Source: Acidimicrobiia bacterium | GTDB lineage: Bacteria; Actinomycetota; Acidimicrobiia; IMCC26256; JAGNEX01 | Assembly (NCBI GenBank): GCA_018003035.1 | Contig: JAGNEX010000002.1 | Span: 67,895-131,894, forward strand | Length of the DNA stretch: 64,000 nt | Reading direction: 5' to 3' | Shown: piece after piece, positions 3,404 to 44,876 of the stretch | Numbering within the stretch: position 1 is the stretch's first letter | How the letters are laid out: the number at the start of each line of letters is the position of its first letter | Program-made: the position numbers and the translations under genes | Notes under the pieces: generated by a model | The model's database searches: none | What the model was told of the DNA's origin: nothing | The model's input: the letters and a program-made list of their open reading frames with translations, nothing else

Positions 3404-4356
3404 ACGACACGCTCGCAGATGTGGCTGCGGTAATCCGTGACAACAGCGAATTCGCGCTTGCTTGCCACGTCAGTCCCGATGGTGACGCCTTAGGGTCGAT
3501 GCTCGCACTGCATCTCGCGTTGCAAGCCGCCGACTTCACCTCGGTCGCCTCTTTTAGCCAGCCGTTTGAGGTAGCGCCTCACTATCGGTCGCTTCCAGGC
3601 CTCGACCGGCTCACTCACCCTGAGGCCTACCCGGCTCAGCCAAAGGTGATGATCACACTCGACTCCGGGTCGCTCGGTCGACTTGGCGATCTGGGGACCA
3701 ATGCGCAGGCCGCAGAGAACCTGATCGTGTTGGATCACCACGTTTCCAACACGCGTTACGGAACGCTGAACGTGATCGACGACCGCGCAGCGGCGACCGC
3801 GGTGATGGTGTTCCAACTCATACAGATGCTCGATCTGCCGATCACCGACGAAGTCGCCACGTGTTTGTATGCCGGTCTGGTGTGCGACACCGGTCGCTTC
3901 CAATACCAGACCACCACCCCAGAAGTCTTTGAGATGGCGGCGCAGTTGTCCGCCTACAAGGTCGATATTCCTTCACTGTCGCGAGAGCTGTTCGAAGAGC
4001 ACCGGTTCGCGTATTTGCAGCTAACGGCACGGGTTCTGGCAGAGACTCAGCTCGACGCAGAGAAACATTTCGCGTCGGCGATCATTCGTCAGGCCGATCT
4101 TGAAGAGTTCGGCGTCACCCTCGATGAGACTGAAGGGCTGATCGATCTTGTCCGACGGATCCAAGAAGCCGACGTCTTTGCCGTCCTGAAGGAAGAGCCG
4201 TCCGGACGTGTGCGAGTGAGCCTTCGTGGCCTCGGTAGCGTCGACGTTCAGGAAATCGCTCAAAAACACGGCGGCGGGGGCCACAGCTTCGCTGCCGGTT
4301 TCACCTCTGACGGTCCGGCCGAGCGGATTGTTGAGTCGATCCGGGCGTCGCTTTAG
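3400..4356 (+). CDS. nrnA: DHH/DHHA1 phosphoesterase (NrnA-type oligoribonuclease / pAp phosphatase)
   Basis: Motifs SPDGDALGS, LDHHVSN (DHH) and C-terminal GGGH (DHHA1). Sits between rbfA and truB as in other Actinobacteria. Confidence 0.85.
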   Translation: MNDTLADVAAVIRDNSEFALACHVSPDGDALGSMLALHLALQAADFTSVASFSQPFEVAPHYRSLPGLDRLTHPEAYPAQPKVMITLDSGSLGRLGDLGTNAQAAENLIVLDHHVSNTRYGTLNVIDDRAAATAVMVFQLIQMLDLPITDEVATCLYAGLVCDTGRFQYQTTTPEVFEMAAQLSAYKVDIPSLSRELFEEHRFAYLQLTARVLAETQLDAEKHFASAIIRQADLEEFGVTLDETEGLIDLVRRIQEADVFAVLKEEPSGRVRVSLRGLGSVDVQEIAQKHGGGGHSFAAGFTSDGPAERIVESIRASL

Positions 4357-30577: not shown

Positions 30578-30589
30578 GAACGTTTGTTC
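30578..30589. promoter_or_regulatory. LexA (Cheo-type) SOS box upstream of recA
   Basis: tcGAACgtttGTTCgg is a perfect GAAC-N4-GTTC with TCGAAC/GTTCG flanks. It lies 3 nt after the cinA stop and about 190 nt upstream of the recA GTG. Confidence 0.75.
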
Positions 30590-30779: not shown

Positions 30780-31829
30780 GTGGAACGCCAACAAGCTCTC
30801 GACATGGCCCTGAACCAAATTCAAAAGCAATTTGGCAAGGGATCGATCATGAAACTGGGCGATCGCGGCGCGGTCAACATCGACGCCATCCCGACCGGAG
30901 CACTGTCGCTGGATATCGCTTTAGGAGTCGGGGGCCTTCCCCGGGGACGTATCGTCGAAATTTTCGGACCGGAATCGTCTGGTAAGTCGACGCTGGCAAC
31001 GCATGTCGTCGCAGAAGCCCAGCGCAACGGGGGAACGTGCGCCTATATCGACGCGGAGCATGCCCTCGACCCTGTCTATGCCAAGGCGATCGGGGTCGAT
31101 ATTGACCAGCTTCTGATCTCGCAGCCCGATACGGGGGAACAGGGCCTCGAGATCGCCGACATGCTGATCCGGTCGGGCGCACTCGATGTCGTGGTCATCG
31201 ACTCGGTCGCGGCGTTGGTGCCAAGGGCGGAAATCGAAGGCGACATGGGCGATACCCACGTCGGGCTTCAGGCACGTTTGATGAGTCAGGCGCTCCGCAA
31301 GCTCACCGCCAACCTCAACCGTTCCCGGACGGTTGCTGTCTTTATCAACCAGCTACGAGAAAAGATCGGCGTCATGTTCGGCAGCCCCGAAACGACGCCG
31401 GGTGGTCGTGCGCTCAAGTTCTATTCCTCGGTCCGTATCGATGTGCGTCGCATCGAATCGATTAAGGACGGGCCCGAAGTCGTTGGTAACAGGGTCCGCG
31501 CCAAGGTGGTCAAGAACAAGACCGCCCCACCCTTCCGGCAAGCCGAGTTCGACATTATGTATGGCGAGGGGATCAGCCGCGAAGGCTCTGTGCTGGACCT
31601 GGCAGTCGATCTTGACGTCGTGAAGAAGGCGGGGGCTTGGTACACCTACGAAGGTGAACAGCTCGGTCAGGGACGTGAGAACGTCAAGCGCTTCTTGCGA
31701 GAGTCGCCCGAACTCATGGTTGAGATTTCCGAGAAGGTCCGCGCCGAATCGGGCCTAACGGGCACGCCCGAAGATGCTGACGAACTCGAACAGGTCGACG
31801 CTGGAGCCGACGTCGAAGGCGAGCTTTAG
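30780..31829 (+). CDS. recA: Recombinase A
   Basis: [28 protein letters not shown] and Walker [18 protein letters not shown] 5 nt before the GTG. No intein. Confidence 0.97.
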
Positions 31830-40792: not shown

Positions 40793-41419
40793 CTACAAAC
40801 GCCGCATGACGGTGACAACCCGACCGTAGACCGTGACGTCACCTGCAGGGAAGACCATGTCTTCAAGAGCGGGATTCGCTGGTCGGAGCACGATGGTGTC
40901 GGTGCCGCCCATGAAGGTCTTTACCGTTGCCTCATCGCCCGGGATCCCCGCGACGACTATTTCGCCCTTCCGTGCGGTGTTCTGTCGACGTGCAACGACG
41001 TAGTCGCCGTCGAAAATCCCCACGTCGATCATCGACTCGCCGCGTACCCGCAACATGAAAAGGTCCCCATCGCCGGTGAGGTCTGCAGGCAGTGGAAAGA
41101 CCTCCTGCATCGTCTCTTGGCCGAGCACCCCAGTGCCGGCTGCAACGTCGCCGACGAGGGGGACGTGACGTACCGGTCGACGTTCGACCGGCGTGTCGAT
41201 CTCTGAACCAAAGTGGACTTCGATTGCACGAGGCTTGGTCGGATCTCGTTTGATGAAGCCTTTCCGCTCTAGCGCGGAAAGGTGAGCGTGAACCGTCGAG
41301 GACGACGTGAGTCCCATAGCTGCGCCGATCTCCCGAACCGACGGCGGGTACCCGCGACTCTGGACCATCTCGGCGATGTACTCAAGGATCTGGCGCTGAC
41401 GAGTAGTGAGTTCTTGCAT
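40793..41419 (-). CDS. lexA: LexA repressor
   Basis: From ATG at 41419: MQELTTRQRQILEYIAEMVQSRGYPPSVREIGAAMGL (winged HTH). Ala-Gly cleavage region VAAG, and S24 peptidase Ser/Lys motifs GESM and VTVKTF. Confidence 0.95.
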   Translation of the reverse strand: MQELTTRQRQILEYIAEMVQSRGYPPSVREIGAAMGLTSSSTVHAHLSALERKGFIKRDPTKPRAIEVHFGSEIDTPVERRPVRHVPLVGDVAAGTGVLGQETMQEVFPLPADLTGDGDLFMLRVRGESMIDVGIFDGDYVVARRQNTARKGEIVVAGIPGDEATVKTFMGGTDTIVLRPANPALEDMVFPAGDVTVYGRVVTVMRRL

Positions 41420-41576
41420 GATCTTGCTCCAACCCGATCGGGTAAGTGTTCTGAGTGACGGCTCCACCAGGAGCGATACATGGGCAGTTGGGCGCAACCT
41501 GGTGAGGCAAATGCACGTAGGCCGAGCGCCGGCTGCGAACTTGGGCCAGACCGTAACACGGAGAGTTATCCAGTAC

Positions 41577-41605
41577 AAACATTTGTTCTTATCGCACTTG
41601 TGTTC
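41577..41605. promoter_or_regulatory. Two degenerate SOS-like boxes in the lexA divergent region
   Basis: AAACatttGTTC (41577-41588) and GCACttgtGTTC (41594-41605). Each has one intact GTTC half-site and one near-match half-site. Confidence 0.4.
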
Positions 41606-41629
41606 CCCTCAGGTCCGTGGTTACCATGC

Positions 41630-41641
41630 GAACAGTTGTTC
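41630..41641. promoter_or_regulatory. Perfect Cheo-type SOS box
   Basis: GAACagttGTTC. Ends 34 nt upstream of ATG 41676 of the small membrane-protein ORF and lies about 210 nt upstream of the lexA start on the other strand. Confidence 0.7.
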
Positions 41642-41675
41642 CGTAGGTACAGGTGTTCGAAGGATCGCGATAACG

Positions 41676-42041
41676 ATGAGTTCACTACTTCTCCCAAATG
41701 GCGGCTACTACGGTCCGCAGGGCGCCCGCCGCCCCGTTTCGCTCAGCACTCCGCGGGGTGCCAAGCAGACCGCATCGCTCATCGCCAGCGAAGCGCTCCG
41801 TTCCGAAGTCGAGGTGACTGTGCGATCACGAGCGGTCGCGTGGATCTTGACCGTTGTGATGTGCGGTGCCTTTGGCGCTGCCTGGATGTTGAGCATCGAC
41901 GGGTCGCCTACGGGCGCCACTGGCGCCATCGACGCACCTGGTCTGGTCCATGTTCAAGGTGCGGGGGCCAGCGCTGCAGAAGTGGCGGGCTCTACAAACC
42001 CCGCTGCCAGCGACTCTATAAACCCAGCCCAGTCGAGGTAA
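41676..42041 (+). CDS. Small single-pass membrane protein, candidate SOS-induced factor
   Basis: 121 aa from ATG 41676 (AAGGA 11 nt upstream). One TM segment, AVAWILTVVMCGAFGAAWMLSI. Mostly G/C-ending codons as in neighbouring genes. Divergent from lexA and preceded by an SOS box. No family recognised. Confidence 0.55.
   Translation: MSSLLLPNGGYYGPQGARRPVSLSTPRGAKQTASLIASEALRSEVEVTVRSRAVAWILTVVMCGAFGAAWMLSIDGSPTGATGAIDAPGLVHVQGAGASAAEVAGSTNPAASDSINPAQSR
41783..41800 (+). repeat. 18-nt direct repeat, copy 1 (inside the small ORF)
   Basis: CGCCAGCGAAGCGCTCCG, identical to 42043-42060. Confidence 0.9.
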
Positions 42042-42042
42042 C

Positions 42043-42060
42043 CGCCAGCGAAGCGCTCCG
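42043..42060 (+). repeat. 18-nt direct repeat, copy 2 (just after the small ORF stop)
   Basis: CGCCAGCGAAGCGCTCCG, identical to 41783-41800. A 9-mer AGTCGAGGT also recurs at 41806-41814 and 42031-42039. Confidence 0.9.
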
Positions 42061-42104
42061 CCTAGTCTGGGGCCGGTCGACACGGGTGACGCAAGGATTG
42101 GGCG

Positions 42105-44876
42105 ATGACGCTGGCGTTTGAAGAAGCAGCCTTGGGTATTGGACGGCACTTCACGGCGGAAGGGGTGAACCCTTTCGACATGGTCGAGTGGGAAACCTCC
42201 GACGCTCGAATCACCAATTGGTCAGACGGCACCGACGCCTTCTACCAGCCTGACGTGGAGTTCCCGAGTTCGTGGTCGGTGAACGCACGCAACATCGTCG
42301 CTCAGAAGTACTTTCGCGGCGAACTTGGCTCGGCCAGCCGCGAGGCATCGCTGAAGACGGTCGTCGACCGTATCGTTTCGACGATCGCAGCCTGGGGCCT
42401 TGCCGGCGGCTATTTCGTCGATCAAGACGAAGCCGATGTGTTCGCCGACGAATTGCGATTCATCCTCGTGACCCAACGGGCGGCCTTCAACTCTCCGGTG
42501 TGGTTCAACATCGGGGTCAAGGGCGTGCCCCAGCAGGCGTCGGCCTGTTTCATTCTTTCGGTCGAAGACTCCATGCCGTCGATCCTTGAGTGGTACCGGC
42601 AAGAAGGCGTCATCTTCAAGGGTGGGTCTGGCGCAGGAATCAATCTCAGCACGCTGCGCTCCGCTGACGAGCAGCTCGATGGCGGGGGGACCGCGTCCGG
42701 TCCCGTTTCTTTCATGCGTGGAGCCGATGCGTCCGCGGGGACGATCAAGTCCGGCGGCAAGACCCGACGGGCCGCCAAAATGGTCATCCTTAACGCTGAC
42801 CATCCCGATGTCGAAGATTTTGTGTGGTGCAAGGCGCGTGAGGAGCGAAAGTCACGCGTGCTCGCAGCGAACGGCTTCGACATGAGCCTTAACGGCGCTG
42901 ACGCCTTTTCCGTTCAGTACCAGAACGCGAACAACTCGGTGCGGGTAACCGACGACTTCATGCAGGCCGTGCTCGACGATGCGCAATGGTCGCTCAAGGC
43001 CGTTACCACGGGTGAAGTCATCAAGACGGTCCGTGCCCGAGAGTTGATGCACGAGATCGCATCCGCTGCCTGGGAGTGCGCCGATCCCGGAATGCAGTTC
43101 GATACCACGATCAACCGTTGGAATACCAGCGCCAATACAGCGTCGATCAACGCATCCAACCCTTGCTCTGAGTACATGCACCTCGACAACTCGGCGTGCA
43201 ACTTGGCAAGCATCAATCTGGTCAAGTACCAAACCGCCGAAGGCGATTTCGACGTCGACGCATTCGTCCACACGGTTCGGATCCTGACGACCGCGCAGGA
43301 CATCCTCGTCGACAACGCCGCATACCCAACGCCACAGATCGAGGCCACCACTCGAGCGTTCCGCCAACTCGGTTTGGGATACGCCAACCTCGGTGCGCTT
43401 CTCATGAGCGAAGGTATGCCGTACGACTCCGAGGTCGGGCGGGCCTGGGCGGCGGCGATCACCGCGCTCATGACGGGCGGCGCCTACCGGACTTCGGTCG
43501 ATATTGCCGCCAAGCTGGGTCCGCACCGCGGCTATCGCGACAACGTCGAGCCGATGCAGCGCGTGCTCCGTCAACATCGAGACGCCGTTGAGGGCATTGA
43601 CGCAACGCTGGTGCCCGAGGCGCTTATTTCGAGCGCTCGGTCCGTATGGCGCGAGGTGTGTGACCAAGCGGCGGTTCACGGCGTGCGCAATGCACAAGCT
43701 TCGGTGCTGGCGCCCACTGGCACGATCGGCCTTGCGATGGACTGCGACACCACCGGTATTGAGCCCGACCTTGGTCTTTTCAAGACCAAGAAGCTGGTGG
43801 GCGGCGGGACGCTCCAGATCGTCAATCAGTCCGTTGGACGGGCGCTTGAAGCCCTCGGATATCAGGAGCCTGATATCGAGCGGATCGTCGCTTACCTCGA
43901 AACTGAACGCACGATCGTGGGCGCACCCGGTCTCGATCCCGATCACCTTGCCGTTTTTGCGTGCGCGATGGGGGACAACGTCATCCTCCATATGGGTCAT
44001 GTGCGAATGATGGCAGCGGTTCAGCCGTTCCTTAGCGGCGCAATCTCCAAGACCGTGAACATGCCCGAAGACGTCACAGTCGACGACGTCGAAGAGCTCT
44101 TCATCGAATCGTGGAAGGCGGGTATCAAGGCCGTCGCCATTTATCGCGACGGTTCGAAGTACGCCCAGCCACTTGAAACGAACAAGAAGTCATCCAGCGA
44201 TGTGAGCACCGTCGCTCTGTCGAGTGCCACGCAGCTTTCGTCTGCAGCAGTTGAGCTGATCGCTGACGCTCGGCCGGTCCGAGAGAAGCTCCCTCGGAGC
44301 CGCCAGTCAAAGACGTTTTCTTTCCGCGTCGCTGATTGTCATGGCTACGTGACGGTCGGGGAGTACCCGGACGGTCGACCGGGTGAGATCTTCTTGCGGG
44401 TCGCCAAACAGGGCTCGACGCTCGCCGGGATCATGGACGCGTTCGCCATATCGGTGAGTCACGGTCTGCAGTACGGCGTGCCGCTCCGGTCCTTTGTTGA
44501 AGCCTTCGTCAACATGCGTTTTGAACCGGCTGGAATCACCGACGACCCAGATCTCCGTCTCGCTTCGAGCTTGGTTGACTACATCTTCAGGCGATTAGCC
44601 CTTGAGTACTTGCCCACCGACGAACGGCAGGGGCTAGGTATTTTGACCGTCAACGAACGCAAGCAGCCGACGCTGCCAGGAGTTGATGAGGCCACGGCCC
44701 CGAGCCTGCCCGTCGCTGAACTGAGCGATCCGCCGTCGGCGGCATTGCCTGCGGTTCAACTCGAGGCCGGAGGCACGGTGCACGCAGAGATTTGTCCCAA
44801 CTGCGGCGACATCATGCGTCGTGCTGGATCCTGCTATGCCTGCCCAAGCTGCGGGAGCACGAGCGGCTGCTCGTAG
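42105..44876 (+). CDS. nrdJ: Class II (adenosylcobalamin-dependent) ribonucleotide reductase
   Basis: 923 aa. N-terminus FTAEGVNPFDMVEWE. Catalytic NPCSEY with Cys, SACNLASINL. C-terminal zinc ribbon CPNCGDIMRRAGSCYACPSCGSTSGCS. Confidence 0.93.
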   Translation: MTLAFEEAALGIGRHFTAEGVNPFDMVEWETSDARITNWSDGTDAFYQPDVEFPSSWSVNARNIVAQKYFRGELGSASREASLKTVVDRIVSTIAAWGLAGGYFVDQDEADVFADELRFILVTQRAAFNSPVWFNIGVKGVPQQASACFILSVEDSMPSILEWYRQEGVIFKGGSGAGINLSTLRSADEQLDGGGTASGPVSFMRGADASAGTIKSGGKTRRAAKMVILNADHPDVEDFVWCKAREERKSRVLAANGFDMSLNGADAFSVQYQNANNSVRVTDDFMQAVLDDAQWSLKAVTTGEVIKTVRARELMHEIASAAWECADPGMQFDTTINRWNTSANTASINASNPCSEYMHLDNSACNLASINLVKYQTAEGDFDVDAFVHTVRILTTAQDILVDNAAYPTPQIEATTRAFRQLGLGYANLGALLMSEGMPYDSEVGRAWAAAITALMTGGAYRTSVDIAAKLGPHRGYRDNVEPMQRVLRQHRDAVEGIDATLVPEALISSARSVWREVCDQAAVHGVRNAQASVLAPTGTIGLAMDCDTTGIEPDLGLFKTKKLVGGGTLQIVNQSVGRALEALGYQEPDIERIVAYLETERTIVGAPGLDPDHLAVFACAMGDNVILHMGHVRMMAAVQPFLSGAISKTVNMPEDVTVDDVEELFIESWKAGIKAVAIYRDGSKYAQPLETNKKSSSDVSTVALSSATQLSSAAVELIADARPVREKLPRSRQSKTFSFRVADCHGYVTVGEYPDGRPGEIFLRVAKQGSTLAGIMDAFAISVSHGLQYGVPLRSFVEAFVNMRFEPAGITDDPDLRLASSLVDYIFRRLALEYLPTDERQGLGILTVNERKQPTLPGVDEATAPSLPVAELSDPPSAALPAVQLEAGGTVHAEICPNCGDIMRRAGSCYACPSCGSTSGCS

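Follow-up and report, generated by a model that had tools for sequence, protein, structure and literature searches.

ORF121, a predicted LysM-less membrane protein whose gene is divergent from lexA in an uncultured Acidimicrobiia bacterium, is a candidate SOS division inhibitor

The SOS division inhibitors encoded beside lexA form a class defined by that synteny and by a single membrane helix, and two members, DivS and SosA, do without a LysM domain (PMC6851548). Here we describe a small open reading frame (ORF), ORF121, which lies divergent from lexA in 64,000 nucleotides (nt) of DNA from an Acidimicrobiia bacterium (contig JAGNEX010000002.1, positions 67,895 to 131,894; this whole stretch is referred to as the window). 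A sequence-only reading of the window had suggested that the 121-residue product might be a new, lineage-specific member of the same functional class. We put the probability at roughly one half that ORF121 is a LexA-repressed SOS division inhibitor, LysM-less and specific to its lineage, and we infer this function from its position, predicted topology and constrained core. The position is that of the SOS division inhibitor in most Acidimicrobiia and in Mycobacterium, Corynebacterium, Bacillus and Staphylococcus (ChiZ, DivS, YneA and SosA).

In Mycobacterium tuberculosis the lexA/Rv2719c intergenic region contains four SOS boxes, of which lexA has one and Rv2719c three (PMC3381160), and the Rv2719c product, ChiZ, interacts with FtsI and FtsQ and has a LysM domain that is reported to be dispensable (PMC3989709). 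ChiZ and the ChiZ-like genes of other Acidimicrobiia (loci L002–L025) resemble ORF121 in their divergence from lexA with several shared SOS boxes and in a basic N-terminal cytoplasmic tail of ~50 residues followed by one membrane helix. Unlike them, ORF121 has no LysM domain, no detectable sequence similarity, a YRRRR motif reduced to R-S-R and no nrdR after it. DivS of Corynebacterium glutamicum, compared here by description only, is actinobacterial, SOS-inducible (as is predicted for ORF121), lexA-divergent, single-pass and LysM-less (PMC6851548, PMC3989709). YneA of Bacillus subtilis shares lexA synteny and LexA control with ORF121 (predicted for the latter) and differs from it in carrying LysM; its essential helix, which binds transmembrane segment 7 (TM7) of FtsW (PMC13396833), provides a model for mechanism.

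SosA of Staphylococcus aureus is also a small, LysM-less, single-pass, lexA-divergent and LexA-controlled protein (the last predicted for ORF121) that is poorly conserved outside its lineage (PMC6851548). It is only 77 residues long, however, with its helix at residues 10–30 and its conserved, functionally important part outside the cell, whereas ORF121 shows none of these traits: its helix lies at ~53–74, the conserved part is the helix with the segment preceding it, and the outer tail is dispensed with in a sister clade. SosA-like ORFs were seen in four Salinicoccus loci (L030, L048, L052 and L057). SidA and DidA of Caulobacter crescentus set a precedent for inhibitors consisting of hardly more than a helix, a form that the protein of the sister-clade locus L001 (below) also has. 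They are cited as very small, damage-induced membrane proteins acting via the membrane-embedded divisome (PMC6851548, PMC4211646); they belong to a different phylum, are not encoded beside lexA and have no sequence relation to ORF121.

LexA-type boxes between lexA and ORF121

The source organism is uncultured and known from metagenome assemblies alone. Its LexA is 94% identical to that of the metagenome-assembled genome HK-STAS-ACTI-1 (locus L001), found in a genome scan, and besides L001 the genome and metagenome scans returned no locus with a LexA more than 70% identical. Comparisons were made with L001 and L162, which are independent assemblies of a sister clade, and with L161, a contig of a near-identical (99%-identical) strain. 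In the window, lexA (minus strand) and ORF121 (plus strand) are neighbours transcribed divergently across a gap of 253 nt, the arrangement that marks the lexA-linked SOS inhibitor class. The features of this region, together with the one other perfect box, are as follows.

Positions 40793 to 41422, minus strand: lexA, 209 amino acids (Pfam LexA_DNA_bind 9e-29 and Peptidase_S24 4e-27; NCBIfam TIGR00498 2.6e-66)
Positions 41550 to 41555, minus strand: candidate lexA -10 element, TACGGT, inside the conserved motif ACCGTAACACG
Positions 41577 to 41588, no strand assigned: SOS box 1, AAACATTTGTTC, one mismatch, probable lexA operator
Positions 41594 to 41605, no strand assigned: SOS box 2, GCACTTGTGTTC, one mismatch, identical in L001
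Positions 41622 to 41627, plus strand: candidate ORF121 -10 element, TACCAT (TAnnnT type), directly upstream of box 3 and conserved in L001
Positions 41630 to 41641, no strand assigned: SOS box 3, perfect, GAACAGTTGTTC, ending 34 nt before the ORF121 ATG
Positions 41647 to 41658, no strand assigned: SOS box 4, GTACAGGTGTTC, one mismatch; the aligned site in L001 is GCACAGTCGTTC
Positions 41659 to 41664, plus strand: Shine-Dalgarno-like GAAGGA, read from the sequence, 11 nt before the ORF121 ATG
Positions 41676 to 42041, plus strand: ORF121, a 121-residue predicted bitopic membrane protein (ATG at 41676, TAA at 42039–42041)
Positions 30578 to 30589, no strand assigned: the other perfect box, TCGAACGTTTGTTCGG in context, with 190 nt from the box end to the GTG start of recA (30780–31829)

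Four GAAC-N4-GTTC boxes, each with at most one mismatch, thus lie between lexA and ORF121. They span 82 nt and form two pairs, with 17 nt start to start within each pair. The sequence-only reading had located the perfect box and its spacing to the ORF correctly, and the two degenerate boxes that it placed towards lexA correspond to boxes 1 and 2; its three boxes are all present and box 4 had been missed. GAAC-N4-GTTC is the box type of Gram-positive and actinobacterial LexA proteins (PMC3381160, and general knowledge), and on sequence grounds it is taken to be the LexA motif of the source clade, which is supported by the position of the second perfect box upstream of recA. These two are the only perfect boxes in the 64-kilobase (kb) window, a number that is unremarkable in itself (1.6 expected from shuffled sequences). 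As to clustering, no 100-nt stretch in 300 simulated 64-kb sequences held four boxes at this tolerance of one mismatch; the maximum was three (in seven runs).

The boxes are also conserved. A block of 33 nt containing boxes 1 and 2 (41575–41607) is identical in L001 and L162, and an AAAC-N4-GTTC box occupies the relative place of box 1 in most Acidimicrobiia loci. At the position of box 3, both sister-clade assemblies read GAACATGCGTTC, in which the half-sites are retained and three of the four spacer bases are changed, as would be expected of a LexA site but not of coding sequence or a fortuitous match. Three to five such boxes are present in the lexA intergenic region of all related Acidimicrobiia loci. 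Predicted boxes, clustering, conservation and the match at recA all point, at the level of sequence, to a LexA operator for ORF121. The motif ACCGTAACACG, which contains the candidate lexA -10 element, is identical in L001 and recurs as GGTAACAC beside the lexA-proximal boxes of other Acidimicrobiia loci. Close to the start of ORF121, the substitution A41672G in L161 creates a new ATG 5 nt after GAAGGA.

Constraint on the ORF121 frame and the predicted protein

Relatives of ORF121 are few. A phmmer search of 1.84 billion representative sequences, like a word-indexed search, returned a single match, a 98%-identical copy on contig L161 (P0001), and a profile search added P0002 from L001 (hypothetical in the NCBI annotation) and its near-twin P0003 from L162. 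With these as its only relatives, the family is known from four assemblies in two sister clades, in all of which the ORF121 frame is intact. Alignment across the two clades is limited to residues ~37–73, around the hydrophobic segment, and the conserved core within this stretch is listed here.

Positions 41805 to 41897, plus strand: conserved core of ORF121, codons 44–74, EVEVTVRSRAVAWILTVVMCGAFGAAWMLSI, comprising the juxtamembrane segment and the membrane helix

Compared with its counterpart in L001 (AVELAVGSRIAAWFLTVVACVGFGAVWASAL), the core retains 16 of 31 identical residues despite 38 differences in 93 nt. The ratio of non-synonymous to synonymous substitution rates (dN/dS) is 0.18 in the ORF121 frame and ~2 in both other frames, and random placement of an equal number of changes reaches the observed identity with a probability of only ~0.001 in simulation; the distribution of the differences over the three codon positions (10, 10 and 18) is not significant alone. 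By these measures the membrane-helix core is under purifying selection, which argues that the frame is real at least there. The sequence-only reading had made conservation of the frame and purifying selection in related genomes a check on its proposal, and codons 44–74 bear it out, whereas the C-terminal third of the protein is not conserved. We conclude, on these comparative grounds, that ORF121 is a real but fast-evolving gene, the constrained part of which is a juxtamembrane segment and one membrane helix.

It is improbable, in our estimate, that ORF121 is an untranslated chance frame in high-GC DNA and that the region is simply a shared lexA/nrdJ regulatory region with a leader. The frame does remain open upstream through the operator for 211 codons (41406–42041; 178 codons in the L001 equivalent), another frame of the same region yields a 213-residue ORF, the GC content by codon position is flat rather than gene-like and no protein family matches. 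Against this, the constraint is specific to the ORF121 frame: one of the two alternative frames has stop codons within the core in both sequences, and the hydrophobic helix and flanking arginines have been conserved at the protein level through ~10 synonymous changes. The ORF121 frame also has the best codon-usage score of the six. The start of the sister-clade gene is ambiguous, with gene callers giving products of 54, 98 or 148 residues; the longest, P0002 as annotated by NCBI, has its start codon, an ATG, within the spacer of the perfect box and is probably an annotation artefact of high-GC DNA.

The protein itself is predicted to be bitopic. It has one hydrophobic segment (Kyte-Doolittle hydropathy 1.98, window from residue 54), and AlphaFold2, run with no alignment, gives a single helix at residues 26–74 (predicted local distance difference test score 81–93 over residues 41–70) with disordered ends; the membrane helix is placed at ~53–74. 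Read from the sequence, the N-terminal tail carries a charge of about +4, with R50 and R52 beside the helix, and the C-terminal tail about -3, a balance that predicts an N-terminus inside and a C-terminus outside. Hydropathy, AlphaFold2 and charge balance together predict for ORF121 the single helix and external C-terminus of the class. Searches of Pfam, NCBIfam, PHROGs and PDB sequences found no domain match, as the earlier description of one transmembrane helix without a recognisable domain had implied, and the lack of a clear LysM domain that it noted is borne out by the absence of any LysM match in Pfam, NCBIfam or PDB sequences.

A perfect 18-nt direct repeat, CGCCAGCGAAGCGCTCCG, was observed within ORF121 at 41783–41800 (codons 36–42) and again at 42043–42060, in the conserved block upstream of nrdJ described below, and is by our own estimate far too long to arise by chance in 800 nt. 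Beside each copy lies a 12-nt repeat, AGTCGAGGTGAC / AGTCGAGGTAAC, in swapped order (41807–41818 and 42031–42042). The first copy of CGCCAGCGAAGCGCTCCG is unconserved in L001 and carries R42H in L161.

The lexA-divergent gene and nrdR in other Acidimicrobiia

The comparison set comprised the 48 Acidimicrobiia-like loci for which sufficient upstream DNA was available. All 48 have, divergent from lexA and behind SOS boxes, an ORF for a protein with one helix, 45 of them with a LysM motif, and the positional and topological rule on which the sequence-only reading relied is strengthened by this recurrence of a membrane helix and LysM at the lexA-divergent position. Pfam detects LysM in 13 of 18 aligned positional orthologues, and their profile matches LysM domains in the PDB at 7e-10. 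These proteins share a MAA(V/I) start, an Arg/Pro-rich tail, a YRRRR motif, one helix, a linker and LysM, and their architecture, as read from sequence, is that of ChiZ and YneA; one of them gave a weak, sub-threshold match (4e-6) to the NCBIfam YneA model. In many, as in ORF121, the helix starts near residue 54. With no detectable homology to the LysM proteins, ORF121 may be either a deletion derivative of such a gene that has diverged beyond recognition or a de novo replacement.

Both ORF121 and L004-type proteins have an 'L-x-H-V-Q' motif a comparable distance beyond the helix; this resemblance is anecdotal, and no weight was placed on it. Seven loci (L003, L012, L014, L017, L018, L022 and L025) have a conserved leader, TGTCACACCCC(C)T(G/C)AGGAG(A), running into the Shine-Dalgarno sequence ~20–35 nt before the LysM gene; a degenerate look-alike of this leader occurs at 41599–41614 in the window, and the ATG that comes after it, at 41626, begins a mini-ORF of six codons spanning the perfect box. 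That this ATG is a vestigial ancestral start was considered using a weight matrix derived from 22 LysM genes (their Shine-Dalgarno and start regions), and rejected: the best matches, at 41590–41628 and at the same site in L001, were not significant (P ~0.2 and 0.14).

An independent LysM-less version occurs at L012 (~3476–3766, minus strand) and L106, where a protein of 96–98 residues with a MAAI start is followed by nrdR. Elsewhere, automatically picked ORFs of 50–118 residues between lexA boxes and nrdR were noted in Eggerthellaceae (L049, L072 and L080) and Aquicultor (L026), each encoding one hydrophobic segment, at the C-terminus, and lacking an outer domain; these may be a 'tail-anchored' variant of the lexA-adjacent protein that recurs. 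The L012/L106 proteins and the small proteins of Eggerthellaceae indicate that the wall-binding domain has been lost repeatedly at this locus.

The neighbourhood downstream differs between the clades in a way that the sequence-only reading had overlooked. In most Acidimicrobiia the LysM gene is followed by nrdR and then by nrdJ, and divS is said to lie immediately upstream of nrdR. This actinobacterial order (lexA, divergent inhibitor, then nrdR) is not that of the ORF121 locus, at which nrdJ follows directly.

Positions ~42005 to 42104, plus strand: conserved non-coding block upstream of nrdJ, common to the window, L001 and L162, with flanking sequence that cannot be aligned
Positions 42062 to 42067, plus strand: candidate -10 element TAGTCT in this block, accompanied by a Shine-Dalgarno sequence, AAGGA
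Positions 42105 to 44876, plus strand: nrdJ, class II (B12-dependent) ribonucleotide reductase (Pfam Ribonuc_red_lgC 8e-141, Ribonuc_red_2_N and TSCPD), starting 63 nt after the end of ORF121

No nrdR was found in the 64-kb window or at the L001 and L162 loci, and tblastn found no convincing remnant of nrdR or LysM in the window or in L001. The distance from lexA to nrdJ is ~680 nt in the window (~680–1000 nt including L001), compared with ~1350–1500 nt elsewhere. At most of the other loci compared (L002–L024), the 170 nt upstream of nrdJ contain TTGACA and two palindromes, ATTACAGTGGTGTAAT and AACCACAAGATGTAGTGGTT, which we take to be NrdR boxes; no such palindromes were found upstream of nrdJ in the window, L001 or L162. 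With nrdR and the palindromes gone, nrdJ may be reached by read-through from the LexA-controlled promoter, and this may raise ribonucleotide reductase, since no terminator-like site was found in the 63 nt that separate ORF121 from nrdJ. On the other hand, TAGTCT and AAGGA in the conserved block suggest that nrdJ has its own promoter. The block overlaps the last ~35 nt of ORF121, and the L001 ORF has ended ~300 nt earlier.

A structured leader or attenuator for nrdJ was discarded as a candidate (the fold of 42000–42130 has a z-score of 0.2, and there is no terminator-like site), as was an RNA element, the Rfam gathering-threshold scan of the whole window having found two distant transfer RNAs only. 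At the far end of nrdJ, the C-terminus of the protein (44760–44876) has a Cys-rich tail, CPNCGDIMRRAGSCYACPSCGSTSGCS, with weak zinc-ribbon Pfam matches; the tail is conserved in L001.

Weighing the role of ORF121 and a possible mechanism

Several findings weigh against the assignment of ORF121 to the division inhibitors. It has no detectable homology to the local LysM proteins or to any characterised inhibitor: hhalign gives a probability of 0.9% between the ORF121 family and the Acidimicrobiia LysM family, and Smith-Waterman comparison with LysM proteins gives z-scores of -0.2 and 0.16 against segment-shuffled controls. Its coding support comes from 31 codons in two clades, and the lead of its frame in codon usage is weak (0.06 per codon versus 0.28–0.47 for the reference genes, which are also the training set of that score). 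Relative to the 99%-identical strain, ORF121 has 3 synonymous and 2 non-synonymous changes, a rate close to that of intergenic DNA, and three of five is not a significant excess of synonymous changes (P ~0.13 by our own calculation); nrdJ has 6 and 0. The C-terminal 47 residues (75–121) are unconserved in the sister clade, the protein of which ends three residues past the helix with no outer domain (two assemblies). In YneA, inhibition of septal wall synthesis depends on the LysM domain (PMC13396833). No consensus sigma-70 promoter was found in a scan of 41300–42200, and LexA binding, damage induction and a division phenotype are, for ORF121, predictions.

Several of these observations would also suit a decaying remnant. 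If a deletion took the LysM part of a chiZ-like gene along with nrdR and the NrdR-regulated nrdJ promoter, ORF121 would be non-functional or barely functional, and the boxes would serve lexA autoregulation and LexA control of nrdJ via a long leader. The absence of nrdR and of the NrdR-type palindromes, the shortened distance from lexA to nrdJ and the missing terminator agree with such an event, as do the unconserved C-terminal tail, the truncated sister protein, the unconserved start position, the weak codon bias and a substitution rate equal to that of intergenic DNA with two of five changes non-synonymous. A core dN/dS of 0.18 with P ~0.001 is nevertheless unexpected for a pseudogene, and the frame, Shine-Dalgarno sequence and start codon are retained in both clades while the surrounding DNA has become unalignable; the conserved block with its TAnnnT element, moreover, suggests that nrdJ has a promoter of its own. 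We regard decay as unlikely, and the frame-specific constraint on the helix argues both against it and against an untranslated frame.

The same regulatory evidence would serve equally for an SOS-induced protein with some other role, such as a TisB/DinQ-like toxin that perturbs the membrane and induces dormancy, or a protein anchoring some repair or envelope function to the membrane. Little beyond the membrane helix is conserved, the sister protein has no outer domain and homology to a division inhibitor is lacking, all of which such a role would accommodate. Type I toxins are, however, typically smaller than this protein, which has 121 residues (54–98 in its sister-clade counterpart) and a long cytoplasmic tail, and the Rfam scan found no antisense RNA or Rfam family in the region. 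The locus position also argues against a different role, being used by division inhibitors across Gram-positive bacteria (PMC6851548) and by ChiZ-like proteins in sister Acidimicrobiia. We think this alternative distinctly unlikely.

If ORF121 is instead a division inhibitor, the following sequence of events can be envisaged, in which the binding of LexA, induction by damage, the membrane topology, the divisome partner and transcription together with nrdJ are all inferred. In undamaged cells LexA would occupy the four boxes, with boxes 1 and 2 covering the lexA promoter region, upstream of ACCGTAACACG, which on the lexA strand would provide a TAnnnT -10 element, and boxes 3 and 4 covering the start of the ORF121 transcript. 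The latter pair lies directly downstream of TACCAT, which would act as the -10 element and place the perfect box over the transcription start. Upon DNA damage, RecA-stimulated cleavage of LexA would free both promoters, and the ORF121 protein would insert into the membrane with a basic cytoplasmic N-terminal tail, one helix and a short, acidic, poorly conserved outer tail. The conserved helix (S51 R52 xx A55 W56 x L58 T59 V60 V61 x C63 xx F66 G67 A68 x W70) might then contact a membrane component of the late divisome, by precedent a partner of the FtsW, FtsI or FtsQ type, and septation would be delayed until repair was complete.

A more specific history can be proposed, which we offer tentatively and consider doubtful: that this lineage reduced an ancestral ChiZ-like protein to a module of juxtamembrane segment and helix, and that the same event removed NrdR with its operators and left nrdJ behind the LexA-controlled promoter.

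Overall, ORF121 plausibly adds a new, lineage-restricted member to an established functional class and is not a new kind of system. The suggestion of a lineage-specific class member stands as regards position, topology and core constraint, and finds no echo in sequence homology to the LysM proteins. As the system is not of a new kind and the organism cannot be cultured at present, the value of the finding is mainly comparative. We found no paper on Acidimicrobiia with LexA or an SOS box in the literature searched, and the rule that the gene divergent from lexA encodes an SOS division brake would here be extended to this widespread and mostly uncultured actinobacterial class. LysM-bearing, LysM-less and ectodomain-less versions at one locus amount to a natural deletion series bearing on which part of such a protein suffices, a debated question given that reports describe LysM as essential to YneA and dispensable for ChiZ. 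That nrdR has been lost and nrdJ now lies behind an SOS operator provides a small case of possible regulatory rewiring. If the reduced-module history is true, the helix alone would carry the division-inhibiting contact, as the sister clade is without any outer part, and the supply of deoxynucleoside triphosphates would have moved from NrdR control into the SOS regulon.

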